DNA of 47,369 nt, counting the filler, from Jimgerdemannia flammicorona (Eukaryota): NCBI GenBank assembly GCA_003990765.1. It is 2 parts of 2 records of this genome, joined end to end, with 100 filler letters (N's around TTAATTAATTAA, not from the genome) between each part and the next. Parts side by side here need not be neighbours in the genome. Positions count along the whole stretch, not along the records: positions 1 to 23,636 come from RBNJ01001084.1; 1 more part is not named here. The stretch is one strand, 5' to 3'. Below the pieces are notes generated by a model, which did no database searches, had not been told where the DNA came from, and saw only the letters and a program-made list of their open reading frames with translations. Positions within the stretch are counted from its first letter, which is position 1; each line of letters begins with the position of its first letter. Of the stretch, positions 1 through 23,584 are shown piece after piece. A program made the translations under genes and the position numbers.

Positions 1-20
1 AAAAAAAAAAAAAAAAAAGA

Positions 21-537
21 AGCATCATAATCCAAGTCAAAAAGAGCCAGTGTTTGGAGAGTGCTTGGTAGATTCAAAAAGATACATCCCGATAGATGGG
101 GATTATACTCTTGGTCTCCCCATTCAGCAAGTTCAAGTACCTTGAGGTAGTGGCAATTATTGAACAGTGTGGCTAGAATATATAGATCAGTGTTCACAAG
201 ATGGGCCAATTACAGATTGGCCAGTAGGAGGAAGATATTGCAGATAACACTTCTGCTGAAATTAAATATATCTGGTAAATAGATTTCTTCACACAGAGTA
301 GCAAGATCTTCTCTGGTAAAAATGGTATACTGGTATAAAAGCAGTCTTGGAGTGAGGTCCCTGGGATCAATATTAAGTAGAGAGACTGCAGTAAAGCACT
401 GCTGTTGCTTCAGTATTGAAGCTGCGACAGACTAGGGTGCAGGCATGAAGGCTTGTTTGAAGCAACTGTGCACAGTCATCATAGGGCCAGAGAGCATCAT
501 GCAGATACCCAATACTGATGTAAAGGAGGTCATTCAT
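21..537 (-). pseudogene. F-box (plus LRR-like) protein pseudogene
   Basis: Manual translation from ATG 537: MNDLLYISIGYL...LHACTLVCRSFNTEATAVLY, typical of fungal F-box-like N-termini, then LRR-like LFNNCHYLKVLEL. Has in-frame stops and runs into the poly(A) at the window start. Confidence 0.6.
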
Positions 538-651
538 ACTTTGGGGGAATAATTAGCATATATTGAATGCTAGATATTTATATATTAATTGCATGACTAC
601 TATATATGCTGCAGATGACCTAGATAAAAGCAGGGCTGAAAACCCCTAAAG

Positions 652-945
652 AATGACAGTACAATAGACACCAAGTGTATCCCAAGATGCTGTCAGTGCT
701 CTATCAAATATACTGATCTAATATATGTCACCTATATATCATACTGTATGATTTCCTGGCTTGATTGCAGGCAATGCAAGTTGCGAGGTCAATGTGTTAA
801 CTGTGCCTAGTACACAGATTGCTGACAGTGTGCTAGCCAAATCTCAACAGATCCTAAATCACTCTGTACCAGTTGCAAGGGGATCTGGACAAAACACCAA
901 TATCTCATAGATACAATCTTTCAAATTCGCACTTATATATTCTAA
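652..945 (+). pseudogene. Small multi-CxxC (zinc-binding) protein remnant
   Basis: One frame reads KCIPRCCQC...DCRQCKLRGQCVNCA*YTDC*QCASQ...LCTSCKG. Five CxxC motifs; stops are explained by CAG>TAG and CGA>TGA. Confidence 0.45.
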
Positions 946-1042
946 ACACCCATATTATAGACAGGAAATCTTTTAACATATGACCTTATGTACTATATGA
1001 CTATGATAATAATATGATATACATCAATTTATGCAATGGTCT

Positions 1043-1969
1043 TTATTCTACAAGTATTTCTATAACACTGGCTGTTCTTATCACTGTTCTAGCTATATTA
1101 TATATTATTGCACCATATCTGGTCCTTATATATATATCTGCATCCAATTGGTTTACAAGAAGGGTTACCATATCTTCTATTACTTGCTCATCATATATTT
1201 TACAACCAGATGATCTAAAATGAAAATACCCAGTACTCCATGTTGCATAATGCAATGGTGTCTCTCTAAACAGCTTATCTACAATATCAACACATGCCTG
1301 AAATTCAACAACTAGCATTTTCACAAGCTGGAGATTTCCATGGTATACACAAATGTGCAATGCACTATGTCCTCCCATCTATATTCTTGCATTAATATTG
1401 ATGCCACTAAACTTTAACAGAGCACATACAGTGTCAATATGATCTCTCTTGCAGGCATAATACTGTACATTCTGACAATTTTGTCTGGATGCACTGGCAC
1501 ACAGCAAGGACACAACTTTTTGGTAACCATTGCATGCTGCTATCTGCAGTAGTGACTTCAGTGTAAAGTCTGGAGTTGCTAAGCTAGCCCCATATCTATA
1601 AAGAAGATGTACAGCATCATAGCATCCATGTTTTGCAGCTATATAGAGTGCTGACACAGCACTATATCCAATAGCATTGATATCAGCATTGAGCTCATAT
1701 ATGAGAATTATGATAATGTGAGTGGTGTTTATATATACAATTATGTGTAGTGGACTGTAGCATGTTATATTAGTTGAAGAGGACTGAATTAGATAGTCAC
1801 TGATGGTTTTCTCAGGAGAGAATCCCTGCACTTTTAACTATTCATACAGGATGATATCTCTTCCATTCTCATAAAAGATCAGTGGTGGAATGGTAATAGC
1901 CACATCATATTGTCTATTAGTATTATCTGAGGTGGGGTCAGTGGGGGCCTTTTGATAATATGGATTCAT
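1043..1969 (-). pseudogene. Ankyrin-repeat protein pseudogene
   Basis: ORFs 1379-1831 and 1043-1378 are in one frame split by a stop. Repeats include SPLHI, SALYIAAKHG, SLLQIAACNG, SALHICVYHGNLQLVKMLV and ETPLHYA. Confidence 0.85.
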
Positions 1970-2170
1970 TATCTTCACTGATAGTTACCTGCAAAGGGGA
2001 GAAGGCAATAGAAGAGCCAGTAGGTCAGACACAGACATGTTCTTTGATGATACCTAGTACAGAATGTACTGTATTTAAAGGTTCTCTGGCAATAAATTTG
2101 TGACCAGAAATAGATACTTCTGAATAACAATTAGCTAAATTACCAACAATTATACAAGTAATAGTAATAT

Positions 2171-2472
2171 ATAGTATATAGGAGCAAATGCATCTTTTGC
2201 TCAAAAATCTCCTAAGTGACTTCGAAATTTTTGGCCAGCTAATAGGGGCTCACCATAGCATATTCCTTTCTTTGAAAAAGGATATGCTAAATATGAATTT
2301 TATTAATTTAATAAAAATCAGGTGTACCTTTTGCCCAGCTATTGAGCTGTCATTTAGCATAACTCTTTTTATTGAAAGGGTTATACTAAATGTGATTTCA
2401 TTGGCCAGACAAAAAATTCAAAGTCACTTAGGAGGATTTTGAGCAAAAAGTGTATTTGCTCCTATATACTAT
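2171..2472. mobile_element. MITE (non-autonomous DNA transposon), about 300 bp with about 60-bp terminal inverted repeats
   Basis: Left end ATAGTATATAGGAGCAAATGCATCTTTTGCTCAAAAATCTCCTAAGTGACTTCGAAATTTTT matches the reverse complement of 2411-2472 with few mismatches. No coding capacity; TSD is not clean. Confidence 0.85.
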
Positions 2473-2608
2473 TAACTATACTAATACAAAGTAATTAGCC
2501 ATCAGCATTATTTTATCTCATACCTATATAAATTATATCCGCACATATATAAATAGCTCACTGCAATTTTCTTGATACTGTAGAAATATATCATATTATT
2601 GGAGTGCA

Positions 2609-4438
2609 ATGTCATCCTCTAGACCAAGATATCATCCATATACCAGTATTACTCCAAGGCAGCCAGTTATCAACCCACAGAACCACCTCCCAGGCCCCTT
2701 TTGAAAAAAAATCCAGGAGACAGTCTTAGTGAATGGGAAAGGTACCAAAGGCCAGCTTGGCCTAGGATCTGCCATTGAGTTTGCATACAATCTATGGGTT
2801 ATAGAGACACTGAATAGTATTGGTATTGTGGATATCAGCACTGGATATAACCATTCTGCAGCTATTGATATTGAAGACAGAGTATGTGTCTCTATTTTAG
2901 TCTCAAAATTGGTATTTTCTATATATTTTATTTTTACCCTAATATATACATCTCTATCTAGGTTTGGACATAGGGGTGCAATGCTAATGGTGCTTTTGAC
3001 CAGAATGGAGATAGATGGAAACCTGCTCTTATTGATATACTAAATGGTGTACGAGTGGCAGCAGTCAGTTGTAGATGGGGATTTACTCTTACCTTGAGTG
3101 ACTATGGATGTCTTTATGTCTGGAGATCTTTTTGTGACAAAGAAGATAAAGTGACCTACATCATAAATACCCCCCAGGACTCTCTCAATCCTGCATGTAA
3201 TCTGAGACCAGATGAATGATTTACTGTCATCACTACTGGTATTTCTCATACCATAGCCCTGACTACTGAGAGATGAGTGCTTATATTTGGACATAGTCTA
3301 CAGTATCAGCTGGGATGACGTCTGGTTGTACATCAGACTGGGGCTTGTCTTGCACTCACCTTTTTAGCACTTGATAGAATCAGATTAATTGCCAGTAGAT
3401 ACTTTCATTCATTTACTGTAGGCAAAGATGGTACCATTTATGCATGGAGCTACAATGACCATGAGCAGACAGGAATACCCAAAACCCCATCCAAAGCACT
3501 CCATCTAATATGAACCCCCACCAAGGTCAGTACAATCCAGAGCAGAATTAGTCAGATTGCTGTAGGAAAACTCCACACCTATATTCTATATGAGAATGGC
3601 ACTGTAGCAACATTTGGGAAGGCAATTGCACTGGATCTCCCATCAGTAAGATCTATTTCAACTGGGTGTGGATGCTCCTTAGCACTGTTTAGTGGAGGGG
3701 ATGTTTTTCAGCAGATTGGTGAATTACTCTGGACAAGCATAAAATGTACCACATCTACACTTGTAGTTGTCACCAGTGTTAAATTCAGTATGGTGTTATT
3801 AAAGTAGGTATTTGAAATGGCTGGAATTTGCTACATTTATTCTAGAGCAGTAACTAACATATATTTTTATCTGTAGAAATCCCAACTTGCCAAAGAAGCT
3901 ACTGGTTCTGGATCTCAATAGGGTGCTTCTCTGCAAGCATGCCCAGAAGTTCTATCTCTGGCCATATCTATATATATTTCTTGGATTTGTTCTTTCCCAC
4001 TTTGATGTCATAGTATGGTCTTCAGCACAACCTCACAATGTAGCCTGCATGATCAGTCTGTTTGGCAAGTACAAGGAAAGACTGACTACAGTATGGATAT
4101 GTGATATATTCAGTCTAATGGATAAGCAGTATCACTCTGATTTCATAATGATCAAGGATCTTTTTATGATATGGGAGGACAGCTCATTCAGTGGACAATA
4201 TCATCAGCACAATATAGTCCTGATAGATAATTCAAGAGATAAGGCTCAGCTGCAGCCAGGGAATGCTGTCCATCCAACCACCTTTGGTATTCAGGATATT
4301 GGGTCCACTGATGATGAAATTAGATGTCTGATAACATATTTGAAAGGATTGCGACAAGAGGATGATGTCAAAGCCTATATCATACAGAATCCCTTCCAGT
4401 CTTGCAATTGTGGTACCATCCCACCTGTTCACAAATAA
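2609..4438 (+). pseudogene. RCC1-repeat protein fused to a C-terminal FCP1/NIF-type HAD phosphatase domain
   Basis: RCC1 repeats: GKGTKGQLGLG, ISTGYNHSAAID, IYAWSYNDHEQTG, IAVGKLHTYIL. Introns at about 2882-2961 and 3804-3876 (GT..AG); the second joins in frame to KKLLVLDLN..., VIVWSSAQPHN, IKDL and NIVLIDNSRDK. Internal stops in the RCC1 part. Confidence 0.8.
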
Positions 4439-5464
4439 AATTCTTTTCTGATTTTGCAAAAGACCTTGAACCTTGAAGTAACACTATAGAAATATTTGAC
4501 AAATTTGATTATATAACAAATTATCTATATAAATACATGGATTTATTTTGAATGAATTATTTGTTAGATACAATGAGTATAAGACTGAGACTTCTGAGTA
4601 ATCAAAGAAAGTGAGGTGAGGCAAGACTAAGACCTCTGGATGATCAAAAAAGAGAAGAAGCAAGAAAATGGCAGCAAACATAGTCTGATATGATAGCTGC
4701 AAGAAGGATACAAGATGCCTTGGATCAAGATGCCAAGTTAATCAATAGAGAACAAGAGGAGCAAGATGGGATTCTGACTCTAAAAATGACCATTAATCAG
4801 ATAGATAATAATACCCTAAAGTGATTGATGGACACTACTGCTGACAAAGAAGCTGTACATATTTTGGAAGGTGTGGGTATTATCATACAAAATATAATCA
4901 TTTTAATTGAATATACCATATATAGTATCCCATTTGTCTCAAAATTTCTGAAGATCTGAAGGCTATAATATATTATGAATACATATTATATAATACTTAT
5001 TTTAGAGGTATGAGAACATAAGTATCTATTTGGTCTATTTTTCAGTATACTGATATATTATTGCTATCTGATAGACTACTCTGAGAAATCTAGAGAAAAT
5101 GAGCAGATTTAATGTCCCTATTACCAGTATATATTAATGTTTATTTTTAGTACCTTGTATAGTTGGCTATCTAATCTCATTTTTATATACAGGCAATTCA
5201 CTTCTTTATCAAATATTGTTCCAATCAACCTTATTTACAAATATCTCCAAAATGCTCCAAAATACATCTCCCTACCAGTAGTATCAGACTAGTTTGTCCA
5301 GTCTGCAGTGTGATATTGTAAGTATTTTCAAGAGTGCAAGATATCTAAATAAATGTTTTTTAAAAATGACATATAATAATGGTGACCAGAATATGATATG
5401 GCTTGTAATCTATATATAAGGCAACTTAAACAACTCCTTAACACTACCTTTTCTTCCTCCAATA

Positions 5465-6450
5465 ATGTCAAACAAGCTAATCTATACCCTGTCCTTTCTA
5501 GTAGCATTTGTCTGTGCACTAGCCCTGGCATTTGTCTCCTACCCACTACCCTCATATGTCTGCCACACACTCCCACCTATAGTGACAAACTATGTCTGCA
5601 GGACCCAGGTACCTATTAATATGACCACTCAGGTTTTCTCAAGCCTAGCTGATCTGGCCAAGCATTTTCCAAACTTTGGCCCTCTGGTGATTGACCTGTA
5701 TGAAATGCATACTGTTCTACAAAATACCAACATTTATATCAAACACTCCAACCTCCTTGCTAGCTGCAGGAATAATATCAACTTGCTAGTAAATTTGACT
5801 ATGCAGACATTTGATAAGATCATATCTGCAATAGAGATGCTTGATGTTTAGTTGCCATTCCTAGTCTACAAGTTCATACAGTATAACAATAGGCCGCAGA
5901 CTGCTCATGATATGACTGCAGCCTTCACACAAATGCTGTATAGTCTGATAGTCTAAATATACAAGCTTGCACAGAATGTACACCAACTAGCAACTAGGTG
6001 GGATATCCCTTTGGCATTATATATATATATCATGTTTTAGTTGGGTTTTTATTAGCTACTGATATTGTTTTTGGCAAATATAGATATAAATATCTCCAAG
6101 AACTGACCAGCAGTACACATGATATCTGTCAAGATCATCTGGACCCCCTGCGGCAATCTGCTCTATCATGGATTTGGGGCTGGATGATAGAATACAAAGA
6201 CAAATGGCTGGGCAATATGGATGACCAGCTCCTACAACATTTTGTCGATGAGCAGGATGTATGCTCTGAGCATTTGGGCCAGATGCAGACAGCAGTTGCC
6301 TATTTTCTGAATCTTTTACAGATGATCCAAGACAATGCTAGAAATGGACTGGTTACCATTATCAATGGAGATGAGTATGTGGCAGCTGTAAATGAGGCTG
6401 TTGAGAAGCTCATGCTTCTATATGCAAATAATATTTGGATCAACTTATGA
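5465..6450 (+). pseudogene. Uncharacterised N-terminally anchored or secreted helical protein with a WIWGW hydrophobic patch
   Basis: ORF 5465-5851 starts with a hydrophobic segment and continues through stops and a probable intron (about 5998-6083) into 5998-6450 (SALSWIWGW...YVAAVNEAVEKL). Confidence 0.5.
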
Positions 6451-7205
6451 GGCCATTGTTGTTTGTTGGAATTTTATAAATAGCTATTTGTTTGAAAAAT
6501 AAAAGATTGAATATGCGATCTGGCATTTCTCTACCATGCCCCTCAACCAACTTGTTGACTTGAAAGTGTATATTGAGTGCAGCCTTCTAGCATCAGAGTT
6601 AGGGAGACTGATCTAGAAGAAGCTTGTGCAGTATGAGGCTGTAGTGTCTGGTACAGACCATCTAGTAAATATACTATCATATGGGAGCCTTACAGTGATT
6701 CAAGTGTTCTGGTGATAATAGATAAGTTTGTAAATTTCTACAAGCATACCAAAAAGATGCAGGATTGTTTTCCAGAATGACACATCTGGTACATTGTACA
6801 AGGTCTGGGGATCCTCGACCAGCAGCTTGTTTAGCTGTAGATAGTATACCAATATCACATTGTTGAGACATACAATGCAGAGGAGACTGTGCAGTGGATT
6901 GTACAACTGTTGTGAGATATTGGTGCTGATGATGAGCATGCAGTAACTCCCAGAATTCACTCTGGTCTAGATGCTATAGATATATGGTGGCATATGTTGA
7001 GGCAGATATACAGTATGTCTGATACTATTGCAACTACTATAGTACAAGTATATCTGTGTATAATACACTCTCCAACCCACAAGAGCTGCTTGCATCCATC
7101 CATATTACCCTGGAGCACATGATTGACAGTGTGGTATCAATATGTATATATATCATTTTGGGGCACACTGAGCTGGACTTCAAAATAAACAGCTCATTGG
7201 CTACT

Positions 7206-8616
7206 ATGTTAGCTAGTATTTAGTGCTTGTATAATCAGAATCTCTCAAATATATATATCAGTGGATTGCATATACCCTGCACTCTGCATACTATATCTCA
7301 AGCATTCTATATAACTGTATGAGCATCAGAAGGATTCAAATCATTCATACAGAGTTTTCTTGATCTGATCAGACTATCTGATGGGAACTTATCCATATAC
7401 AGTAATAGTATGGACTCCCTGTTTATAGAGGTATTTACATGTCCATCATCTAAACCAGTTCTGGGGGATATGATAACAAATAAGGTGGGCATACCAATGT
7501 TCATTTTTTGTTGTGGACAAGTGGTGGAGTGAGTGTATTGAGATAGCCTTATATCTTCTACAGAATTTAGAGTAGGAGGGAGATGCATTACTAAATCTGG
7601 CAGCAACTTACTGGTTGAGCCAGCACTTCCCTGGTGAAGATGTTGGATGGCTGACAGTCAGGCAACAGTGCATGGTAGCTAATAAGTAGGGGCTGGAGAA
7701 TTTGGCCTCAAATCTTGATGTAGATGAGTGGGCTATAAGCAAGCCTAGTAGAGGGGGGAACAAATAGCTGGTGAATATTATGGAGAGTTTGATAAGGTGT
7801 GTACAGAATATAAATATTTGGTCTAGTATTTTGTACAATGAACCTCTGTATAACAGATCTGCTGTCTCTAGTGTAATAGATCACCTGTTTAGATAGTAAG
7901 CTGTGGATAGGTTCCTGTATAGTTGTTTTGATGGCCATGCTCAGGTCTGGTTCAATAGGTATCTCTCTGACAGCATCAAGGCAGAGATTGCAAACATATC
8001 ACTAGAGGATCTGAGCATATTATATACCAATGAGCTGGATGTATATCTATGGTGCCATTACCATGATGGTATGGGGAAGGGACTTGATATCACCTATACT
8101 CCAACAAAGGATAGATAGACAGCCTATGCAAGTATTACAATCAGAGATAAAAACCTAGTATGAGAGGCTAAGGGCCAGATAAGGAAGATGGCCAAGAATA
8201 GAGCATGTCAATGCTTGTTGCAGCTTATACAAAAACATGGTACTGGACTCAAGTCTAGACAACCACTCAAATACAAGAGAGCTGACTCACTGCCATCACT
8301 ACCAAGGTCATCACTGTATGGCTGTTTTACTATACTTCTATCAATGCAGGCAGTTGCCAGCCTTATACCAACTGCCAACTACAAAGGGGTACTGCAGACT
8401 CTGTACAGCTGTGGATTGGTAGTCGATAGTACAAAGTACAAGCATAATCAGACAGAGATACATCATACACCAGTCTTTACTGCAACATGTGTAATTGGTA
8501 ATATTGTTGGCAGTAGTACTGCCTCCAAAAAAAACAGATGCAGAACAGGCTGTAGTAAGGGACATACTAGAAATATTACTTGGAGCAAGATTGTAAAACT
8601 CTGTATATTTGGATAA
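7206..8616 (+). pseudogene. RNase III domain + two dsRNA-binding domains (class 1 / R3B2-like architecture)
   Basis: After an intron ending at 7563: NLE*EGDALLNLAATYWLSQHFPGEDVGWLTVRQQCMVANK (RNase III signature) and NK*LVNIMESLI. dsRBD1 ends AKGQIRKMAKNRACQCLL; dsRBD2 reads NYKGVLQTL...TPVFTATCVIG..GSSTASKK.AEQA. Missed by the ORF track because of stops. Confidence 0.8.
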
Positions 8617-8649
8617 TAAAAGATAAACATTACATAAAAGATCTAAAAG

Positions 8650-9590
8650 ATTACATAATAGTGGTTTATCCTTGGCTTGGGTCACTTTGCAAAAGTTTGA
8701 GCTATATTCAAAACTCTAACATCCATCTTGGCCAGAGATAGAGAGCATCTCAGATTGTCAAAGAGAAGCCATCTGTTCAGTTCTTGGCTATAGCCTCAAG
8801 AGTGTCCAATTCAGAGCTTAGGATGGTACCCCCTGTTTGAATGTTAAATTAGATTATTGATGATATTACAAGTGTATGTATATAAAGCCAGTTGTTGAAC
8901 ATATAAGCTATTTTCAGTTCTTGCAGCCATGAGAGCTGGGCAAGTCAAAGTAGCACACTCCCAGTAGGTTGTAATATGGTGGATATGTGTGTAGTGCATA
9001 GTGACACTACTGATAGAAAAATAAGATATCAAACCACAGATATACATATAGTATTTTATATGCTTCAAACAAGACATACCTCTAATATTAATACAGTAGA
9101 TACTGGGATTTCTGGCAATAAAATGTGAAAGGCCATCCAATACATAGGTATAAATATATTTGATTCTAGTAAGAACTCGAGATTTGATGCTAGTATTGCC
9201 TAGAAGTATCAAGAATGGTAGTGATAGATAGCCTCTGAAATCGATGGACTCTAGATATGGAATATTCAAAATAATAGTACAGGTATCACAGTATAGACTG
9301 CCCATCTCAGAGTGGTCCAGATTGGCCAGTGGAGGTGATGGAGATATATAGAGCCCAGTAATATCAACTACACCGAATTTGAAGAATCCTGGGTCAGTTC
9401 TTGCAAATCGTGCAAGCTGGGCTATTGGGTGATGTAATGTCAGATTCAACCCATCCCAAAGCAACAGTGATAGAGCATCTTCTCGCAGTAGTTTAATGCA
9501 AGTGCAGGATATGAGATTGCTGCTTGGAAGAGTGTTGAGAATCTGATATATGGTCTCAGGTGGCAGACTGGCTATTGGGCTGGATGTTTG
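8650..9590 (-). pseudogene. F-box/LRR family paralog A
   Basis: IASLPPETIYQILNTLPSSNLISCTCIKLLRED (F-box) leads in frame into ORF 8844-9464, which has LRR-like segments. Confidence 0.75.
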
Positions 9591-9779
9591 TATTAATATT
9601 TATTTCAAGGCTTCTTATACTGCCCAAAAATATGATTTAATGGAATTTTGCAGGTATTTGTTTATTAGTAATATCAAATCAATATATTCGCTCTGATGAC
9701 AATTGTCTTACTAATCATAGAACACAGGGCTCAGGGGTTTGACAGTGTAAACAGGTACTATTTGGGCTTTTCAGAGAGT

Positions 9780-10469
9780 GGGATATGATGTAGCTTCCTT
9801 TCTAACATTGGAAAATTCTTGCACATTTGTTTACTCCCAGTAATATTATCTGTAGATCCCACATCTCTGTACCCCCTGCTGATATCATATATATCATTGG
9901 ATACACCCATTGTTTATCTCAAATATACTCATACAAAATGATGTGCATTTGCCTTTTATATATTTTTACAGCATATCATGTTTGTGGTCTGGGCCTCATT
10001 GGATTTAGTAGTGGGGATACTGAAAACAGGAGCAAATAGGGGTTTATGAGGGGTGTGATGTCCAGCTTCACTGTCAGACATCTATAAGAATAGAAATAAT
10101 AGCCATTATAATTACCAGATTAGCATCAGAGCTAAGAGGAAGAAGAATTACTCATAACCTACCTCCTTCATTAAACTGCACTTGTATACCTTACCAGCCC
10201 ATGTCCCTTTAGCATTGACTGTACCAAATCTAAAGAAAACTGTGTCTGCCCTTGCCAGTCATGTGAGCTGGGCTACTTGGTGATGTGATGTCAGATCCAA
10301 TCCATCTTGGAGCAACAGTAATAGAGTATCTTCCTGCAGTAGTTTAATGCAGGCACAGGATACCAAATCACCACTTGGAAGAGTATCAAATATCTGATCT
10401 ATGATTTCGGGTGGCAGACTGGCAATTGTGCTGGTGATATTTTGGAGACTTCTGTCCTTTGCACACCAT
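9780..10469 (-). pseudogene. F-box family paralog B
   Basis: IASLPPEIIDQIFDTLPSGDLVSCACIKLLQED...LDLTSHHQVAQL..LARADTVFFRFG. Clear DNA similarity between 10215-10425 and 9365-9575. 3' limit uncertain. Confidence 0.75.
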
Positions 10470-10940
10470 TGGCCTTTATGACAAACATGCCAGTGCCCCA
10501 GCCTGCATCATTAACCCAAAACATCTGCCCCTAGTCTTACTAATTTATAGGACATAGGGGTGCCATTTTGTGCTTTTCTAATGGATCCTAGGGATACTGA
10601 GTTGTTTGGACCTCTAACTGCAAAGGGGTGCTGCAAACTCTGCATGATCACAGATTGGTGCAATCTTTGTAACTTGGCAGGATGGTACAGGCCATAGTCC
10701 TGTCTTTACTGGGGTGGAACAATTAAAGATGAATGCAGAGGCAACAGCCAAGATTGTACTGGAAATATACTTGATTGGATCCAGTGCTAATGTATCCTAT
10801 ACCCCTTTTTGTAAATCCTACCCCAACCATAAAATTTTGCAATATAAAGAAAATGGAGTTTTGTCTACTGCCCAAATTCTGATGTGGTTGGCTGCCTCAT
10901 TTCTGACCTACATTGTATTGCCTCATACCCCACTACATTG

Positions 10941-11290
10941 TGCTGAGTCTAATTCTCAGGCCAGGCCAGCCCACTCGGTGGACCAAGAAGCTCTTGACCA
11001 CCATCAACTCTGACTGGCTGGACCCAAGACCTGTCTGAGTTCCAGGCTGAGGATTGCTCCAGTCTAGGTGGACCACAGAAGTTCACCAGGCTGAAGTATG
11101 GCAAATCTATTCTCTACCTGGACTTTGGACCCTTCTCATCTCCACACATATGACTAGTCATTAGCTGAGTCCTTTGCTAAGTCCAACACCCTTGCCAAAG
11201 CTGGGTATAGACTCAGCATCTCAGGCTGGTCACCTGGCAGACCAAGATGCTCTTGCCCGCCTCCTCACGACCAGCTGGACCCAGTTCTAC
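10941..11290. repeat. GC-richer non-coding island with an 11-bp inverted repeat and a degenerate direct repeat
   Basis: TGCTGAGTCTA (10941-10951) and TAGACTCAGCA (11208-11218). CTCAGGC..GACCAAGA(A/T)GCTCTTG..GCTGGACCCA occurs at about 10955-11027 and 11220-11284. Confidence 0.5.
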
Positions 11291-11559
11291 CAGTCCAATG
11301 ATGCTGGGGCCATTGCATAAATATCAACATTTTATATATTATTTTTTAAAAAACATTCATATTGGATTTGAGAAGTTTCTACTACCGAATCCAGTATTAT
11401 TCCAAGAAAGTGGTGCAGCTCAACTATAAGTTATTTGAGCCCATGAAGGATTTATATCATTGACAGTAATAACCCTTCACATTCAGTTGGGAGATTAGTA
11501 ATAGATGATTATTATATGTTTCAGATCTATTATCAGGCATAATTCTCTCATCATCATTT

Positions 11560-12526
11560 ATGTGATAATTCTAACCATAGTACTGAAACTGGTGATTGAC
11601 TCTTAAAACTAGTCTCATGTGACATTCTGAGAAGCCTCAGTCTAAACTACAGATAATAAACTAATCTACATAAATATCACAGTCACACATCTCCCATGAA
11701 TGGCTATATATATAATATATTAGTTCCTGATAATCTGCTTAATAGTTGTAATCCTCTATCAGAAGCTGAAAATCATTGATTGTCAGATAGAAGCCATTCA
11801 ACTGTCGATCTGTAGTATCTTCAAGAGAGTGAAAGTCCCTTCTATCTTCAAACCATTCTGTAGTAAAATATATAGATTAGGTGTAATCATAGCCAATCTA
11901 TGAATTCAGAATAGCAAAGCATATATATAGGATATTTTTAATTCTCTGATGTGTGCAATCTGAGTGAGTTTAATTAAACCAGGCACTCTATCATCAGTCG
12001 ATAGACCTCTAATAATCACACTCCTGATACTAGTATTTCGAGCAATGAATTGTACAAGTCCATCAATACTACAGATGTCCTGCCATTCAAGATTAGCAAG
12101 TGATTTATATCTGAGAAAAGTATTACTCAGTATCTTGAGTAACTCAGGAGATATATAGCTATTGAGACTGAGTGTTGCCAGGCCTGAGAGGTTGGAAATA
12201 ATGTCACATATACCAGAGCAATCATGTTCAAGTAGATACTAATCTGTATAGGTAGGAGTGTATATAGACATATTCTGAGATTTACAATAGTTGCTATACT
12301 GAATTAAAAGAAGGCTAGATCAGTTCTTGTTAGTTATCTAAGTGGGTTGAGATCTTTGTGCAATGTTAGATCAATTGTATCCTCAAGTAGTAGTAGGGCA
12401 AATACTCACCATGGAGAAATATAGGCACAGAATATCAGATCACTGCATGATAAATTGTGAAAAATCTGGATAATGGTTTCTGGAGGCTGGTTGAATGGTG
12501 GAAGGGTGGGTGTTTTCTGTCAACAT
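11560..12526 (-). pseudogene. F-box/LRR family paralog C
   Basis: PPETIIQIFHNLSCSDLIFCAYI...IDLTLHKD..L.RTDLAFF and DGLVQFIARNTSIRSVIIRGLS, matching paralog A DGLSHFIARNPSIYCINIRGMS. Multiple stops. Confidence 0.7.
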
Positions 12527-12649
12527 TTCTTTAAGGGGTGTGGAGATTACCACTAGTATTAAATATAATATATCAGGATTACATACCATCATATGACTAT
12601 ACTATTTTGGTATAGGTTTTCAATAGTAGGTGATATGCAAGAATGCAAA

Positions 12650-13530
12650 GACCTGTCTATATATCATGCTACTATCTCAGTATATGCTAATTTTGTATAT
12701 ATATGTATAATTTTCATGACCCCAGTTACTATTGATTCATAGAAAAATGGCTTTAATATTTACTATTGATGGGATCACAAATATCTAGATGGGTCTATTC
12801 AGTATATTGTAAGTGAAGGATTAATATAAACTAGTTCACATATCTTTGCTATACAATTTGCATTTGTAGGCTGGCCCCATAGCTCCATACCACATAGTAT
12901 ACTTGAGAGTGTAATAGCTTTGTATCGGCTAGCATGCTCAATGGCAATACTGCTCACTACTATAGGTTGGATCAGAGATATAGCAATCTGTCTCTGGCTG
13001 CCTACCATTAGCCAGCACTCACCTATATGTATAGATGGCATAATGGCTATCTCTGGAGGGTGAATACAGATATCACCTTTCAATATCTGATAGAGAGTAT
13101 ATAGTGATGAGAAGTATGTTGGCGAGGTATACTGATGGACAATTCTTACCTCTCCAATATAGAGTACAAAGTCAGGAGACTCTATTATACTAGATGTATA
13201 CCTATTCAATATTGTATGTCTTCTATCAGTGATCTCAGATACAAAGGATTGTGATAGATAAGCCATAACTGTCTCTACATAGAGTGTAGAAATAGTATAG
13301 AATACTATGATACTGATAATATACATGTACCAATCTAGTATTACTGGTATATGATTGCTGACTGGTGGCTGTATCTCTTGCTTGATATCAGTATATTGCA
13401 GAGATATATCGAGAGTAGCAGTAGTGTCTATATCACTATCACTGTCACTATTATATGCCAAACAGTACTTATCTGCAATCAAACAGCTATAGGCAAATGA
13501 TGGTACATCTTTGTAGAGATTCTATGGCAT
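12650..13530 (-). pseudogene. SUN-domain (Sad1/UNC-84) nuclear envelope protein pseudogene
   Basis: TM segment followed by PDFVLYIGEVRIVHQYTSPTY, PPEIAIMPSIHIGECWLMVGSQ.QIAISL, IAIEH and MELWG; a frameshifted tail reads INSNWGHENYTYIYKI. Confidence 0.85.
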
Positions 13531-13719
13531 TTTAAATAATAATCTAATACTGGACAGAGCTGGTATTTATAATATTGATATAATCCTAGTTAGCTACTGT
13601 ATCAAAAGAATACTAATTGGTGAAAATGGAAAGATGAAAATAATAAACTGAATGATCTATAATCCAATGGCAACTCATGGAATATTTGAGTTTATAGGAA
13701 TAGAATCGTACTTATTTAT

Positions 13720-14480
13720 TGCACAAGCTGACCCACACTACATTTGACCACTGTATAGCACTGATCAAATTATATGCTTTGTGGATGAACTGAATATGGT
13801 GCCTATAATCTGTGAATATATGTCACTTCACCAGCCTCTAGTACCCAGACAGGACACAACAGACTCTGTTGGCATATAGTATCTGCAAGCAGGACATCAT
13901 GCATCTCATGCTGCTTGATCATTACTAGAATATTGCTGGTGATGCAATCCAGATAGTGATTATAGCGGGTAAAGAGAAGTACTTTCTCAATGTTTGGTCT
14001 GGATAATAATATAAGAAAGTATAAAATGTATAATAGCCAAGATTACAAATCTAATATATTGTAATATATGGAAATTGTACCTCTGCAGTACACTCATCAT
14101 ACATGATAGTTTCTCTTGCAGCTTCCTCCTTATTACTGGTTTAGTAGAATCAACAAAGGAGCCACTGATAAATAAGACCAGATTGACTCTGTGTTTCAGC
14201 TGACTGCTAATTACAATATCAATGAACTTATAGATATGGCAATGAGTATAATGTTTGTTGAAGACATGACTAATACACCCAAATATAATTTTGACATACA
14301 TTTTCAAATGAGATGGTTCATGGCTGTCCATCTCTATTGTCTTCAGCCCACAGTATACCATCATTATTAGTATGTATTGGAATCAGCAGCCACTTGCTTG
14401 CCCTGGTCACCATCTTGATGATTGGAATAACATTATATTAGACAATTATCATAATTCGAATATTAATACAAGGATACAAA
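13720..14480 (-). pseudogene. Unknown gene remnant
   Basis: ORF 13987-14364 plus flanking intron-like AT-rich segments. No recognisable domain. Confidence 0.3.
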
Positions 14481-15215
14481 ATTGGGTCACCTCTTATCAA
14501 TACTGTTTGCTTCTGTACTGAGGGTGTTTTCATTCAAAATCGAATTTTTTATGAAGAATACCTGATTGTTCTACATTGGTATTATGATATTAATTAAACA
14601 TAGTATTTACATATTTTACAATATAGCTAGCATCTGATCATATATCCTATATATTGTGAATGAAGACATAGTTGCAGTCCCAAGGATCTCCTACTCTGTA
14701 AAGGATGTAAGTTCAATCATCTGGATATCAATGTAGCGGTTTCTATCATAAAAAGTGGTTGTATCAGATCTGCTATCATTATATTTCTAAATATTTGACA
14801 TTTACCTATATAACAATGAGTTACAGAGCTGCTGTCTATATAATATACCAATCTATTTGTCATCATACAGGTATACCTGGTTAGAGGGCCTGAGGGCTGT
14901 AGCTGTATGCTTAGTTGACCCTCTTTGGGTCCAGAGTTCAACTGTTTTGCAGTCTATCTAGTGTACATCATTGTGTCTGTGATAATGTAACTTATGATAT
15001 CACAGTAAATACCATGTGATTTGTGGCTTTGGCATCATATGACTCTGGCTGGAAAGCTACATAAAACTAAATAATACCTCTGTACAAAAACTAAACACAT
15101 ATCTCTATATATACACCTAATCATATCTACTAAATATCAGTGAAATTCTCAGGGCCATTTTTGCATCCCAGATGAATACTTTGAAGAATCAATTAAATGA
15201 CATCTAGTATTTAAT

Positions 15216-15960
15216 ATGTCATTTTCAAACATGGATACCACTTTCTATGTCTGGCTCAAGGAACCAATTATGTCAGTTCCGATACAGCAGAATCTGGCAA
15301 GCTATAGACTTTATTATTATTATTATTTTGTACCTTTTTGTCATCCTTTAATCATTTTCTATAATTGCTATTTACAGGAGTCTGAAATACTCACCTCTAT
15401 ACAGTATACCCAAAAACATGCTTATGAAGAGGATGAAGAGGATGGTGGTGAAGGTCCATCTACATCAAAACATGCTCACTTCGAAAAGGTATTCTTCTAT
15501 TTTACTAGATCTTCATTATATTGACCATTATAGTAATATCCTGGTATTTTTATAGGATCTGCCATCCCCCCCTCCCCACCACTGCCACCATGGTATCTTG
15601 AAGAATAAACAACAAGTACCTCAACAAACTAATAGAAGCAGGTCTCCAACCCCACTAATCCATAAGCCCACAGAAGAAGAGCTAGCCCTGGTGGAGAACT
15701 TCAGGACTACTGTTGCAGAGGTGGTAGCTGATCCCTCTCCATCCAGCTGTCTACTCTGAGGGAAAAATACTCTCCAGACACACTTAGTGGGCTGTTTGGC
15801 TCTGCCTCAGCAGCCCTGAAAGTAGTTGATGTATCTTTCCCTTCAGGTGGTCTTAAGGGTACTTTGGATCAACTGGTTGCAATAAGAAAGTTTCAATGCT
15901 TGCTCAGGGGGCCAGAAAGAGCTCATTATGATCAGCAGATCAAGCAATGCTTTGGCTTAG
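15216..15960 (+). pseudogene. Unknown intron-containing gene remnant (acidic/Pro-rich)
   Basis: Exon-like blocks (KHAYEEDEEDGGEGPSTSKHAHFEK; PTEEELALVENFRTTVAEVV; LDQLVAIRKFQ) separated by short AT-rich introns, e.g. 15489-15555 GT..AG. Confidence 0.4.
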
Positions 15961-16276
15961 AGATTTTAATCCTCCTTACAAATGTGATATTTCTATCATA
16001 TTTTTATAATCTGGTAGAAAAACATGAGTATGGAGTACTGTACTCTTGTGTATGCATTGCATATGAGCTGACCCACACACTACCTACAATACTATTTTAT
16101 GCAGTAGATAAGATAACAAAAAAACTTATTATAGTAGACATATAATAAATTGTATAATTTCAATAGATAGATTATAGTATTTATATTATCTGTCAGTTCA
16201 GTATAATTTATAGTTATTGATATACCAATTTCTAATAAATATATCTATCTTATTCTTCAATATTCATGTATTTTTA

Positions 16277-16774
16277 CTACCAAGACATTTCCAAGAGGGC
16301 TGTTTTAACTGTTTTAGAACACCCAATAAGTTGATGCTGGACTCTCTTGCAAACCCTCCCACTCCTTGTTACTTGTATTTTCTCTTCAGTAGGGGGTTGA
16401 ATTCTGCCCTCTAATTGTTGTTGGACAAATATATATCTCTCCATAAAGTTTGCCACTACTCTTTCATGGAATTCCCTTGCTGTCTTTTGTATCAAAATAT
16501 CTTACATTTCTGGATGAATATGTGGATATATTGACAATGCCTTAATGGCAACTTCTTATATTGAAGGAGAGAGGTGTGGGTGACTCCTTATTGCCTGATA
16601 GAACTTGGATAGATATTTGAAGTCTCAGATATTATACTGTCAGTGCAGATGTCTGATTGCCTCAGAGTGAAGTGTATGTGAAATATGTATGCAGTAAGTA
16701 AGATCAATAAATCCAAGATTGCAGACTATAAGTCCAACTATCTTGGCTGGTATTGACTACATATAACAGATCAT
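16277..16774 (-). pseudogene. Small F-box protein pseudogene
   Basis: M..*SIPAKIVGLIVCNLGFIDLTYCIHISHTLHSEAIRHLH...LSKFYQAIRSHPHLSP, continuing in frame into ORF 16277-16495. Confidence 0.65.
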
Positions 16775-16934
16775 TATATGAGATCATTTTATGTATAGAT
16801 TTATATCAAAGTCCTGCTATTTATATTGTTATAGAAAAGTTTATTTAATGGCCACTCATGGGGTTCAAAACATAGTACTATGTTGAGGTAATCAGCAACT
16901 CTGAATTTACATTCTTCAATAATATATAAGAAAT

Positions 16935-17521
16935 TAATAAAATAAAATAAAAATCACAAAATCCTTGGCTCTATATAACTTTCTTGACTAATGTCAAGAT
17001 GATACTATTGGCCTTACCTCTAAAAAATGAGTTGGCTCCAATAAGATAGCTGGCTCCTATTACCATATTGTATACCTGTGTCCTGCACTCTTGGGATACA
17101 AAATCAGATATAACTGCCTTCTTTCCAAGAAGATCACTAATAAACTGCTTGCCATATCTTATCTCATCAAAGGTGATTTCCTGCCCTCCTCTGGAATTGT
17201 GTACAGCATCAATGAATACATTGAGTGCTGACACCTGAACAGCTTCTACAGGCTCTTCAGCAAATACACTATCATCTGAAACTGTAGACAGCAGACTGAA
17301 TCACCCTGGAGGAGAAGGTGATTCAGGTATGTTTGGAATCCTCTATGGCAATTTGCATTTTCGAGAGTATACTGGAGGTGATGATGGCAAGGGTGTTTCT
17401 CTATATGTATGAAGTTCACATGGATCAACAGTCCTTGGAGATGTGGGTGGTGATACATTCTGGTCGTAATTGAATATTGTATATTCCATTCTTTTAGAGA
17501 GAAATGATTGCAGACTGTCAT
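16935..17521 (-). pseudogene. Unknown gene remnant with a Pro/Ser-rich N-terminus and helical C-terminus
   Basis: SPPTSPRT..TPLPSSPP..PESPSPP read through stops into ORF 16971-17234. Confidence 0.4.
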
Positions 17522-17773
17522 TTTAAATAGACAGGTTTAAATAGCAAATATTCAGTGGTAGTCTCACCAATTTAGTCTTTGAAGATTCAAAATAAAACAT
17601 GGTTTGTTATACATTTTACAGCAGCCAAGATTTATTCCCAATCATAATACTCTGGCCTGAGTGGGAACTGATATCTACTTTGGCCTGCTGGTATTGAATG
17701 ATAGCCCAGTATCAGAGTTGAAATACAAAGCCTGATATATATACAAAATAGGGTATGATGTAGAGTGACAAAC

Positions 17774-18864
17774 TCAGTCAATGATATCATCATCTGCAGA
17801 TACACCAGGATTCTCTAGACATTGTACATATAGTAAGCCAATTACAATAATATTTAGCTTCCAGCACCTATTTAGTTCAAAGCTCCAGATGATACTTGCT
17901 ACAATGGCTGCAACTACTAGCAAGACCATTACTGCTGCAGAGCTCAGGCCTGTAATTGTCTGAAGTATTGCAATGGTCCCCATAGCCCATCCAGGAATCC
18001 ATCTACTAGCTGATTTAATAAAAGCCACATAGTGCTGTTCAACAAGAGTGACAGTAATATTACTGGCATTGGCAACTGCTGTGATTGTCTTATTGAGAGT
18101 ATCATCTACTTTGTAGGTATACTCATCTACCCATATACCTATGCCACTTAATGTACTGGTGGTTGTAGTTGTTAGCTGAGCAACCTCCTTTTTTGCAACC
18201 TCTAGTCTATCTATGACATCTTGTTGCTTTTTAGCCAGCTGATCCATTGATATCATCAGATCACTGAGCAGACATTGTGATACTGCTTTTATATTTCTGG
18301 TGATCTTCATCTATCTATGGAACTAGCAGACAGAATGTGAGTTTGTTTTATGGTATATGAACATTGGAGCCAATACTGTATTTTTGCCCATGTACTTCAG
18401 ACAGATATCGGTATTGATACCCTTGCCTAGACATTGTCTGGGGATTGATATCTTCAATATTATAGCATCGCATACTACCAGAGAAATACCATCTACAAGA
18501 TTCCATATATATAATTAATATATAGTTGTGCATAATTATGTGAAATAAAACCAAAACAAGATACTAACATCTATTGTGAACACTCATCTGTCAGAACCAT
18601 ATCACAATCAGGCCCCATGATATCCATGGTCTGCTTGAAGCAGTCTCCCTGTTTCTCATATTGACAAAGAGTATCTGTAATTTGCAGTATATATAAGAGT
18701 GCTGTTTGTAGGTACAGAATCTAAACAATACTTATTTTCAACCACATACTTAATGCCTGCTTATATTTATCCTCTATAGATATAGTTGATACACTCTTGC
18801 TAGCATGGCTGACTGTAGCAAGCATATATGCAAACAGGAGTATGAGTTTTGGGATGGGAGTCAT
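17774..18864 (-). pseudogene. Kar5/Tht1/GEX1/Brambleberry-like nuclear membrane fusion protein pseudogene
   Basis: Signal peptide MTPIPKLILLFAYMLATVSHAS. Cys-rich domain across an intron: GDCFKQTMDIMGPDC.../GISLVVCDAIILKISIPRQC...DICLKYM...SVC. Then a coiled coil and C-terminal TM helices (ORF 17774-18310). TATAAATA lies about 20 nt upstream of the ATG. Confidence 0.65.
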
Positions 18865-19049
18865 CTTTTGTAAGAGGGGTATTTATAGATGGAAGAGATC
18901 ATTGCTACTTATAAGTTTATGACTATTTTCATCACACACTGTTCTGAAATATAAGAACCCAGGTTCTGCTCATCACTGCTCAGTACTCTTTCTACCCTAA
19001 TGGCAACAACTACTGTGGCTACAGATATCTCTCTCCAGTACCACTTGGG

Positions 19050-22000
19050 TTACACAACCTTTGGAAAGCAACTATAATATCGTTTTTGGAGAAAAGAGAC
19101 TAGCAACATGGCGACTGACAGACAATCTGAGGTGCATACTGGGTAGGGTGGCCCAAGCGTGTTCGACTGGCAGCAGGTGGGGAGAGGCCCTGGCCTGGGG
19201 GGAGGTATGAGGGAGCTGCTGGCAGGTGGATGCAGAAGGGGAGGAGGCAGTAGTAGAGGACAGAGATCTGGGAGAGTGAGCTTTGCGGAGACAGTGAAGG
19301 AGAGATGGCAGACATTGGGGCTAGAGGGTTGGCTGAGGAAAGGCAAGGAAACAGAGAAGGCGACAGTATAGAGGGGAGTAGCCCTTAGTAGGGGGAGCAG
19401 TGAGGCTGGAGGTATAGTGGCTGGGGGGGCATGATGGCTAATGGAGACAGGACTGCCAATCTGGAAAAAAATCCAGATGTGACTGCAGATGGCATGGCTG
19501 AGCAACTGGGGCTTAGAAGATAAGGAGATTTGGCAGATGGTGTGATGGGCCTGGCGGTGGTGCTGTTACTCAAGAAATCGATCTCAGCATTCACAGTAAC
19601 GGTGTGCTTTCAGGGCCTAGCAGTGATAGCAAAAATGGTGCTGGAGCTTATCACTAAGCAGGTGGCTGGAACAGCATCCATAAAGTTTTTGAAGAGACTG
19701 GAGGGAGTGGAGGTGGGCTTTGAGGAGGCCGAGCCTTTGGAGGAAGCACTGAAGATTGGATTAATAGTTGGAGAGGTGTGTGTTCCAATGGCATGCTACC
19801 TGAAATGGGATCCCAGGGTGGTCCAATTACTGGTGAAAGGGGTGCCCATGGTGATGGCAGTAGCAAAAAGAAGAAGAGTTGAGGAGGTTATGGCAAAGTA
19901 TGGAGAGGTGATGGATATCAGATTCAGAGTCTGGGAGGGGACCTTACTCAGGACTGGGGATGTAGATGTGAGGATTTGGCTGGCAGAGAAAGAAGTTACT
20001 GGGAAGGCAAGGGACTGGCCTTTGGGGATAGTCTGGGGGGCAATCTTGTGCAAGATGATGAGGGTGAAGGGGAGTGAGGAGGAGGAAGAGGACTTATTGG
20101 AAGTACTGGAAGAGTTGAGTGGTGCTGTGGAGTGGCAGATGAAGGCTTGGAAGACCTTTGAGGTAGCGACACACTTGGAGATAGTGGATGGGAGATGGGT
20201 TCAAGTGAACAAGGAGCAGTGGGAATAAGATCAGAGATATAAGAGATAGAAGGAACTGCTGGCGAAGATGGCAGGCAGGTCTCTGAAGGATATGAGCCAA
20301 ATGGTGGATACAGGGGGTGCCAAAGTGAGTGTTTGGGCAAGTGAAGGTAGTGGGAGTGCTGGGAAGGGGACTGGTAAGAACAGGGAGATGACTGGCAATA
20401 ATCTGTATACTGATGGTATGCTTGAGATATGGGAGGAGACATAGGAGGATTCCCCTACCCCTACTCCCCTTATCAGGTGAGGCCCAGCTTCCCAAAGCAG
20501 GGTGGTGGAGGATGTACCAATGCGGGGGGCCCAGCAAGTGCAATTTGGAGTTCCAGAGGTGACGAAAGGGGGACAAGTAGTGGTGGCTGGTGAGGAGGAA
20601 CTGGTGGATGTCCCAGAGGAGTGAGATGAGGCTGTGAGTGCTGGGGCTGACACCACAATGCTGGATGGCAGGAGGCTGGTGACCCCAGGAGGAAAGGAGG
20701 TGGGGAACCTACTTTGGATGTGCAGGATGATGAACAACCTAGTGGCCAAGGAGCTGGGAGAGGTGGATTTGAGGGTAATGAGCAATGAGTATTGGATGTA
20801 GATCCTGCAGGGGGATGGAGTGATGATGGTATTGAAGGTGGAAATTCTTGCAGTGTATCTGGAGGAGGAAGGCTATGAGGTAGATAAGAAGTGAGAGGCA
20901 GAGCTGGCGGGAGTTGCTGGAGAGAGGGCAGAATACTGCTGGACCAAGCATCATGGATTGCAGCTCTGGCAGGAAGCCTGCCTAGAGTACCAAGAGGAAT
21001 TTGAGGAGAAGGCAGATGGAGAAGGCAGATAGAGAGATGAATGAGCTGTTGGTTGGATTGGAGGCTCAGAGGGCTGAAGAGGAGGCAGTGACTGCAGAAT
21101 ATAATCTGGACTTGGTGCAGGAGAAGATAAACATAGAGCAGTAGGGAAGGACTTGATAACACACTATTCTTCATTATGAATAGTACAACCAATATTTTTT
21201 CTTTGAACATAAATGGGTTATGGGGTACTTATCGACATAAGAACATTTTTACTTGGCTGAAGAGATTGGAGGCTGATCTCTTCCTCTTGTAGGATGTCAG
21301 GTGTGAGGATGATTTGGATAGACTGGAATGGATGAAGAAATGGAGAGGTGAGACAGTTTAGAAGGGCAAGGTTGGGATTCTGGTATGGAAAGGTAGAGGG
21401 GAGATAAGGGATATGCAGAGCTAGGGAGATAGATTGGTCTGGGGAGAGTGGATACACATGGGTTGGGAGCCAGTTATGGTGGGCTCCTGCTACTATTCTG
21501 CAGTATGGGGTGAGCATGTGGATTGGGTGAAGGGCCTATAGGAGAGCAGGATTCTTACAGAGATTGGGGTGGATATGCTCGGTGGGGACTTCAATATGGT
21601 CTAGGATGTATTGATGGATAGAACTGATGGAGGACAGGGAGCTGAGGGTTGGAGTGGAGGACTGGCAGTATGGGAGAAAGTGGAAAGACTGAGTGCTTTG
21701 GTGGATGTGGGTAGAGAGTGTTGGGGGGATAGGAGGGTATACATGCACTAGACAGGGGGCCTGGGGACAAGAATTGATTGGATTCTGATGGCCAGCTGCT
21801 GGGGCTTGGATGTTTGGAAGTCACTGGAGGTGGAATGGTGTCTGTGGTCAGATCATTGGGGGCTTTTGGGGCAGGGGCATTTTGGGGAGAGTGGGGATGG
21901 ACCTGGACATTGGCACCTTAATTCCTCCTTATTAGATGATAAGATCTGGTGAGATGAGTGGGCTGCAGACATTCAACTGAGAGTGGAGTACTGGAGGCAG

Positions 22001-23584
22001 GAAGGTGCCCCAGTTGGTATTCAGTAGATGAGGATGAAGGAGATGGCCAGGACCTACTGGAGTGAGGCTGGCAAGGAGGCTGGGAAACAGAGGAGATGAC
22101 AGGTGAGATGGACTTCTAGTAGACTGTCTAGACTCTTGGAGGACTGGGCAAGACTGACAACATTGGAGGAGGAGGAGGATTGGAGATTGATAAGGGTGAA
22201 AATAGAGGTCGATGAACTACAACAGGTGTTGTGGAATGAGGAGGAGGCAAGGGTACAGGGTTTGGTGGCACGGCTTCGTTGGTAGGGGTTGGAGGAAGGG
22301 GAGAGACCCTCAAAGTATCTCACAAGAGCCCTTCAGACAAGAAGGGTGCAATAAAGGTGGGAGGGGGTGCTTAATGCTGATGGTATATTGGTGCATGGTA
22401 TACAAGACATTCTTGGATCACTAAAGGAGTGATAGAGTGGATTGTGGAGTGAGGAGGAGGGTGGGGCAGATGCTGAAGCTATTGACCAAGCATTGGAGGA
22501 TTAGTACCCTATATGAGTAGATGGGCTGGATGACTTGGTGCTACCAGTACGAGAGGAGGAGATCCACCAGGTTCTTGCTGCGACAATGCTGGGTACAGTG
22601 CCTGGAGAGGATGGTCTGCCCTGGGACTTCTGGAAGAAGATAGTGGGAGTTCCAGGAGTACTGGGTGAGATGATGGTACTGTGTGATTGGATTCTACAGA
22701 TGGGGAGATGGGTGGGAGAACAGGATCTGGGGCTGGTGATATTGCTTTACAAGAACAAAGGAAGGCAAGAGAACTAGAAGAACTGGAGGCCAATTATGTT
22801 GCTGGATATGGACAGAAAGTTGGTTACCAAGGTAGTGGTCGCAAGGCTGCAAAAGGTGGCCCAGCAAGTCCTGGGTGTTGAGCAGAGGGGCTTTGTAGGA
22901 GGCTGACTCATTAGGGATAGTACAGCCTGGGTTCATGGAGTTATTGAAGGGGTGCAAGCCAGTGGACTGGATGGGTAACTGGTCTTTCTGGACCAGGAGA
23001 AGGCTTATGACTGGGTGCAGCAGGTCTGGCTGGCAAAAGTATTGGATAGGATTGGGGTCCCGCATCAGTTCAGATCAGCAATGGTCAGCCTACTGGAAGG
23101 AAGTAGGGCTGTGCTCATATGTAATAGACACAGAGGGGTAGTGTTTCCCCTGGGTAGGGGGGTGCCCCAGGGGGACCCACTGTCCCCCATTTTGTATGCT
23201 CTTTCCCTGGAGCCCTTCATGGACAGAATCAGGTAGAAGATAGTGAAGCTCTCTATGGCATTGGGTGGAAAGTAGGGGCCTTTGCAGATGATATGGTGGT
23301 CAGCCTGAGATCAATTGCAGATGTTGAGGAGCTCAAGAAAACCATGAAGTGGTATGAGGAGAACTCAGGAGCTAAGCTTAATTGGCATAAATGTGAAACA
23401 ATGGTATTAGGCAATGGTCTGGTGGGAGGGGAGATTATTGGAACTATTGTCTCTGCTGGTGAGGCAGTGTAGTACTTGGGTATTTATCTATCAGTATATG
23501 GGTCAGTTTTACCCAGACTTTGGTGAGAGCAGTGGGTTGGAATCTGGGAGGAGGTCCTGTGGAGTTGGGGGGGGCACCAATTGT

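Follow-up and report, generated by a model that had tools for sequence, protein, structure and literature searches.

RNase III enzymes on parasitic replicons and in fungal silencing

RNase III suppressors of RNA interference (RNAi) are known from plant and animal viruses. For example, CSR3 of SPCSV carries the tetrad 40E/44D/126N/129E and cleaves both 22-bp siRNA and 200-bp dsRNA (PMC8315922, accessible part), and in the accessible part of PMC4352025 CSR3, the iridovirus enzyme PPR3 (two double-stranded RNA-binding domains, dsRBDs) and an ascovirus RNase III are each described as suppressing RNAi via catalysis. In fungi, the accessible part of PMC8136814 describes the NCRIP nuclease R3B2, reported from Mucorales only, as cleaving solely ssRNA through the centre N52/E56/E113/D116, with residues that vary among fast-evolving orthologs. 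That parasitic DNA can carry RNase III is known already; new here are a family of such enzymes and its carriers, found in mycorrhizal fungi with large genomes moulded by the silencing of repeats.

We analysed a 47,369-nucleotide stretch of Jimgerdemannia flammicorona DNA (assembly GCA_003990765.1; two parts joined by 100 filler letters), referred to below as the window. A sequence-only reading had noticed in it a hidden gene laid out like R3B2 or the yeast enzyme Dcr1 and proposed a counter-defence against host RNAi. Like CSR3, PPR3 and the RNase III of ascovirus HvAV-3e, the encoded family pairs a single RNase III domain with one or more dsRBDs on a parasitic replicon, sharing the E/D/N/E tetrad with CSR3 and two dsRBDs with PPR3, as the accessible sources describe them. 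Unlike these viral suppressors, with which it shows no common descent as far as tested, it derives from an intron-bearing fungal host family; its carrier is at most a candidate virus, with virus-like replication genes and no capsid among the ORFs scanned, and its suppressor activity is putative. The window gene itself is dead; what deserves attention is the family and the elements that carry it.

Structure and decay of the window gene

The window contains a decayed gene for one RNase III domain followed by two dsRBDs (Table 1). The signature E*EGDALL lies exactly where it had been placed, at 7570-7593, and the looser motif E..GD[AS][LVI][LI] appears a single time across the six actual frames and in 2 of 100 shuffled sequences. 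With X written at stops, the window frame matches Pfam Ribonuclease_3 (E 5.2e-4) and dsrm (E 3e-4), though both below the curated cut-offs, and it matches human Drosha (E 9.4e-5). A natural stop-free relative, P0004 (labelled at its source a J. flammicorona protein; 75-80% identical), exceeds both Pfam cut-offs (Ribonuclease_3 1.9e-8, dsrm 5.2e-14). Signature and fold (the Pfam and Drosha matches, and Z 15.1 for the fold of the relative P0008) place the domain in the RNase III superfamily. Pfam detects the second dsRBD only, the first being recognized in a structure model of P0004; there, residues 175-252 resemble a TRBP dsRBD (Z 11.6, rmsd 1.4, 72 aligned) and residues 295-363 another solved dsRBD (Z 12.0, rmsd 1.3, 68 aligned), both predicted as alpha-beta-beta-beta-alpha. 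The two dsRBDs of the earlier claim are thus backed by Pfam for the second and by the model for both.

The gene had been given as 7206-8616, which comparison with paralogs corrects to 7293-8596: the ATG at 7206 sits in the tail of an upstream EME1-like gene, and 8616 is the stop of a shifted frame, the natural stop being at 8594-8596. The first 43 residues of P0004 are also EME1 (Pfam EME1-MUS81_C; low pLDDT), yet a fusion of EME1 with RNase III is rejected as a gene-model artefact, as far as the copies on genome contigs show. The upstream remnant is 82-84% identical to its copy on contig C138 (Pfam EME1-MUS81_C E 1.4e-9) and 37% identical to an EME1-like gene on C10125.

Table 1. Features of the element-derived part of the window, with positions counted along the whole window
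Feature	Position	Strand	Remarks
Giant element family A, window part	15..19025		CpG o/e 0.07; ends at a LINE-like insertion
Ankyrin-repeat gene remnant of element	1043..1834	-	Pfam
Imperfect palindrome, ~300 bp	2171..2472		Common to all family A copies; candidate origin or attachment site
RCC1-repeat gene remnant of element	2705..3040	+	Pfam
NIF/FCP1-type phosphatase gene of element	3854..4435	+	Pfam E 4.3e-18
EME1-like (ERCC4) gene, decayed 3' part	6781..7223	+	Directly upstream of RNase III gene; contains ATG 7206
RNase III gene, exon 1	7293..7484	+	First RNase III helices; alignable with the first exon in C1413 (host-like paralog) and in element copies C138 and C5283
RNase III gene, intron 1	7485..7563	+	79 nt, GT-AG; position common to C1413, C5283, C10127 and metagenome locus L106
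RNase III gene, exon 2	7564..7796	+	RNase III catalytic core; active-site codons E 7570, D 7582, N 7681, K 7762, N 7774, E 7783
RNase III gene, intron 2	7797..7871	+	75 nt, GT-AG; position common to C1413, C26659, C1173, C13405 and L106
RNase III gene, exon 3	7872..8596	+	End of RNase III domain, dsRBD1 (~8023-8235), linker, dsRBD2 (~8377-8590)
SUN-domain gene remnant of element	12802..13521	-	Pfam E 4.7e-7

No start codon stands where the relatives begin, eight internal stops interrupt the frame (7320, 7573, 7687, 7765, 7894, 7897, 8116 and 8161), and a run of A near 8527-8534 carries a frameshift; intron 2 is stop-free and a multiple of three, so that the frame reads through it. Contig C138 holds a second copy, 88% identical, from which the window gene differs by 143 changes in 378 codons, 128 of them transitions; these are spread evenly over the codon positions (50/43/50), so the two copies have decayed neutrally. 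Only one CpG is left in the 1304 nt of the gene. The window copy is dead and decayed via C-to-T mutation. In a comparison of window positions 7000-8700 with C138, C-to-T changes at CpA/TpG make up most of the late decay (30 of 59 changes and 34 of 57), a pattern that appears RIP-like and would have followed the exhaustion of CpG.

An RNase III family of host and elements

A search of the genome contigs with P0004 returned 20 matches spread over 13 contigs; the match on C10125 covers the EME1 part alone. Three family genes (C1413, C26659 and C1173) look like host genes, since they bear introns and lie in normal-CpG DNA; P0005, likewise labelled J. flammicorona, matches the gene on C26659, and C13405 carries a decayed plain duplicate of a host gene. 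Further members, including L106, occur in metagenome records, where a scan confirmed 2 of 56 stretches, one of them informative. Homolog searches by word index gave 1, 1 and 7 matches (five of the seven generic RNase III), and an exhaustive search gave 13. An uninterrupted 392-residue member with both dsRBDs, P0008, was seen on a 1.4-kb Logan contig and forms the deepest family branch. The host genome also encodes a two-domain Dicer.

Phylogenetic analysis groups the family as one clade (support 99/98), with seven RNase IIIs of bacterial/viral type and two segments of host Dicer as outgroups, in a tree of 21 of 26 rows after five fragments were dropped; a second tree of 16 rows gives 100/100, with forks inside the family lacking support. 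Element copies form no supported clade of their own, and a p-AU of 0.38 neither rejects nor shows a single capture. The window protein is 42% identical to its nearest host-like paralog, C1413 (109 of 259 columns), and the gene has both introns of that paralog, which together point to an old capture as DNA. These comparisons establish, at the level of sequence, that the gene came down, introns included, from a host family of proteins with a single RNase III domain and two dsRBDs. The proposal would have failed had no RNase III profile matched or had the gene arisen by recent duplication of a Rnt1- or MRPL3-type host gene; a profile match was obtained, and recent duplication is rejected at 42% identity, with MRPL3-like genes at separate loci. 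Orthology with MRPL3/mL44 is likewise rejected, the signature being kept and mL44 giving a general fold match only; the MRPL3/mL44-type candidates, identified by eye, lie on C5213 and C2508.

Across the family the active-site columns are strongly conserved: E in 13 of 14 members, D in all 14, and N, K and the last E in all 15, and these positions are kept nonetheless along branches of 0.9-1.6 changes per column. Three of the four Aquifex ligands (E40, D44, D107, E110) are retained; D107, to which the N at 7774 corresponds, is replaced by N in 13 of 15 members and by S in the other two. This replacement need not mean a dead enzyme, because CSR3 (as described in the accessible part of its report) is active with N there, nor does it mark a suppressor, since the host paralogs share it and D is absent in three of the seven bacterial/viral-type outgroups. 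Modelled as a homodimer, the RNase III domain of contig C88 reached a predicted score of 0.81, where the best control gave 0.01, with at least 95% agreement in contacts and pLDDT 90, against a mark reached by 21 of 30 solved homodimers and none of 23 monomers; this score probably owes to resemblance to solved RNase III dimers.

Relation to R3B2, Dcr1, Rnt1 and Drosha

With Mucorales R3B2 (one RNase III domain and one or two dsRBDs, in Mucoromycota) the family has layout and fold in common. It is unlike R3B2 in its canonical signature, its multigene nature and its element-borne copies, and R3B2 (6zdw) is absent among the 52 PDB sequences that the family RNase III profile matches at E<=10. Best among these is Drosha (1.7e-15), with Dcr1/Rnt1 at a weak 0.0015. 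The sequence-only reading was right about one RNase III domain with two dsRBDs, a layout shared with both R3B2 and Dcr1, but for R3B2 sequence match and catalytic centre disagree, and for Dcr1 the profile score is weak. Membership of R3B2 by sequence is rejected as far as testable, the family having E/D/N/E and E-x-x-G-D in place of the R3B2 centre; one of the comparisons behind this covers the best 60 of 102 matches. By fold, R3B2 stands level with bacterial enzymes among the best structural matches (6zdw Z 14.4, rmsd 3.0, 141 aligned, 18% identity; top match 15.1), so a deep sister relation is possible; the outgroups of the family trees were bacterial/viral-type RNase IIIs and host Dicer. 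Besides Dicer, MRPL3 and R3B2, the family would be a fourth RNase III type in Mucoromycota.

As in Dcr1, Rnt1 and Drosha RNase IIIb, the extra catalytic N and K of eukaryotic enzymes seem to be kept, judging from the Drosha alignment; we take these two residues to correspond to those so placed in Rnt1 numbering. Unlike those enzymes, the family has N or S as its third acidic residue. In Dcr1 and Rnt1 an N-terminal dimerisation domain precedes the RNase III domain. The family appears to have no such separate domain, since only 64 codons precede the signature and all of them encode RNase III helices; in alignment, exon 1 corresponds to the opening RNase III helices of the bacterial-type outgroups.

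Carrier elements

CpG is depleted over the first 38 kb of the window (o/e 0.00-0.28); beyond lies normal host DNA. The element part that contains the RNase III gene is collinear with, and 77-86% identical to, C335:28560-32769 and C138:39591-26002, and further copies of this family A occur on C127, C2478 and many small, less decayed contigs. The copies are 77-96% identical to each other and differ in their host junctions. Their pieces tile into a self-closing map of ~50 kb by addition of pieces, which either a circle or a head-to-tail array would yield. Within this map the window bridges the end of C335:12750-32769 to that of C138:9433-39591, and C127 and C12124 bridge C138:9433 to C335:12750. 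The junctions with host DNA on C2478 and C127 both lie near a palindrome at C335:17400-17600, a candidate attachment site.

Family A encodes a set of replication and recombination genes, namely a UL9-type helicase, Rad52, a YqaJ/RecE exonuclease, Pif1, RPA-type OB folds, MUS81 and EME1, together with histone H3, dUTPase and many captured genes, including ankyrin, F-box, SUN and kinase genes. The UL9-type origin-binding helicase is an 874-codon open frame at L089 (C22957) and L116 (C27147; Pfam Herpes_ori_bp E 1.8e-7). Among the stop-free family A ORFs scanned we found no capsid, packaging or integrase gene, nor a DNA polymerase in the reconstructed map, so that family A is a putative virus at most. 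The comparisons identify the island as one dead copy of a multi-copy element with its own replication and recombination genes.

Several smaller observations concern the gene content of these elements. The frame preceding the UL9-type helicase resembles by eye an AEP primase, with no family match. Histone H3, kinase remnants and a frame resembling by eye a Ulp1-type SUMO protease (no family match) lie at L005:3152-3619, L157:2270-2671 and L128/L133. In the window, 9372-9583 and 10223-10434 form a 77% direct repeat, by eye the starts of two F-box-like genes. Crinkler N-terminal domains occur at L004:1434-2087 (C138, element A) and L039:2191-2919 (C88, island C).

Two further islands carry RNase III genes of the window gene's clade. 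Island B (C5283, C10127) has a palindrome in common with C94, a contig with a PolB gene and four palindromes, and island C (C88) has a third palindrome type. All three islands have an ERCC4 gene as well as RNase III, A and B also YqaJ, and B and C share the gene downstream of RNase III; in both, RNase III meets the next gene tail-to-tail at a distance of 10-21 nt. The RNase III genes of C5283 and C88 are open, with one dsRBD each, and introns number two in A, one in B and none in C. Normal CpG and open genes make C88 and C5283 look young or undecayed. The gene-dense islands, C88 on the one hand and C94/C856 and C5283/C10127 on the other, each have their own dispersed palindrome. At L035:3450-4717 (C9660), a dsRBD2 very similar to the host-type one of C29407 neighbours a gene of family B (84% to C5283) and may reflect a further capture of recent date.

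These elements resemble Starships and giant endogenous viral elements in being tens of kilobases long, multi-copy, gene-rich and silenced by C-to-T decay. They are unlike them in that family A brings genes of its own for replication and recombination, has palindromes dispersed along it and yields a map that closes, with no capsid found. A search of the genome contigs for the DUF3435 captain gave no match, and its controls gave none either.

Possible roles of the element enzyme

Counter-silencing seems to us the likeliest role of the element RNase III, with a probability a little short of even. The window gene would then be the remains of a gene that a class of large DNA elements, virus-like and self-replicating, regularly carries in an Endogonales-type fungus. 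The live enzyme, we infer a Mg-dependent homodimer, would cut dsRNA into pieces too short for RNAi and would destroy siRNA duplexes, as do CSR3, PPR3 and the ascovirus RNase III, and the element's tightly packed, convergent transcripts would thereby be shielded from host Dicer-dependent silencing. The E/D/N/E tetrad is compatible with cleavage of both dsRNA and siRNA. What holds up of the original counter-defence proposal is an island-borne enzyme, retained in three element families with a CSR3-type tetrad; suppression itself is putative. Against it speak the single dsRBD in islands B and C and the many ordinary genes that the elements have captured. Long retention with an intact catalytic centre would fit equally well if the enzyme were the element's own RNA-processing nuclease, a Rnt1-like trimmer of hairpins and overlapping 3' ends with no special anti-RNAi role. 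The tail-to-tail arrangement in B and C and the frequency of RNase III in large DNA viruses argue for such processing, which we nonetheless regard as unlikely, though a credible contender: several host paralogs could serve in trans, and viral class 1 RNase IIIs suppressed RNAi where tested (PMC4352025, accessible part).

A place inside the silencing system, as a Dcr1-like maker of small RNAs or an R3B2-like ssRNA nuclease diverting the RNA decay of the host, would agree with the layout of both enzymes and with the R3B2 fold comparison, and no other Rnt1-like gene is among the nine Pfam matches in the genome. The family could then be a slow-evolving sister of Mucorales R3B2, whose orthologs diverge fast (PMC8136814, accessible part). 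The missing R3B2 match, the low Dcr1/Rnt1 scores and the canonical E-x-x-G-D in place of the R3B2 residues make this quite improbable. Least probable of all is that the gene was passive cargo, or belonged to a segmental duplicate of host genes now in decay, and was never useful to any element: the window and C138 copies do differ neutrally, and C13405 exemplifies a plain host-gene duplicate in decay, but all six active-site positions are kept despite the distance from the nearest host paralog, two further islands hold open genes, the surrounding genes include some out of the ordinary for a host, such as the UL9-like helicase and the YqaJ exonuclease, and the copies have different host junctions at 77-96% identity. 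Divergence combined with retention largely refutes passive cargo.

Counter-silencing could belong to a broader picture, in which undescribed ~50-kb circular, nucleus-replicating elements or viruses of Endogonales possess, as a core gene, an RNase III that came from an undescribed family of the host and turned silencing suppressor, an independent counterpart of CSR3 and PPR3 that shed its introns and its second dsRBD step by step; taken as a whole, this picture is speculative and more doubtful than not. A host gene kept by three distant giant elements offers naturally intact host and element proteins for testing conflict between elements and RNAi.

Occurrence in databases and the literature

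None of the candidates from IMG/VR (38 for RNase III, 4 for the helicase, 12 for PolB) was a relative, phage records gave no match, and the ESM Atlas returned only generic RNase III clusters (under 0.9) and none for the gene common to A and B. One soil DNA run contained two 151-nt pieces at at least 99%. The accessible parts of PMC12663654, PMC13533422, PMC10827195, PMC7928374 and PMC13465315 do not mention the family, and a mirusvirus screen, according to its accessible part, left out fungi. Subscription papers and supplements apart, the accessible literature yielded no description of this RNase III family or of such Endogonales elements, and no RNase III suppressor from a fungal DNA element.

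Remaining features of the window

Between 19025 and 38100, LINE-like copies at 21758-23573 are inverted relative to those at 25054-26862, a Gypsy element with dUTPase spans ~26900-30400, and an LTR pair (31307-31758 and 36915-37366) is 90% identical. Positions 38400-47369 hold host genes rich in introns and normal in CpG, recognised by eye as a mitochondrial carrier, a tRNA-binding domain and a bromodomain protein. This part also has a short tandem repeat, near 41560-41760, and ends in a palindrome (47212-47369).
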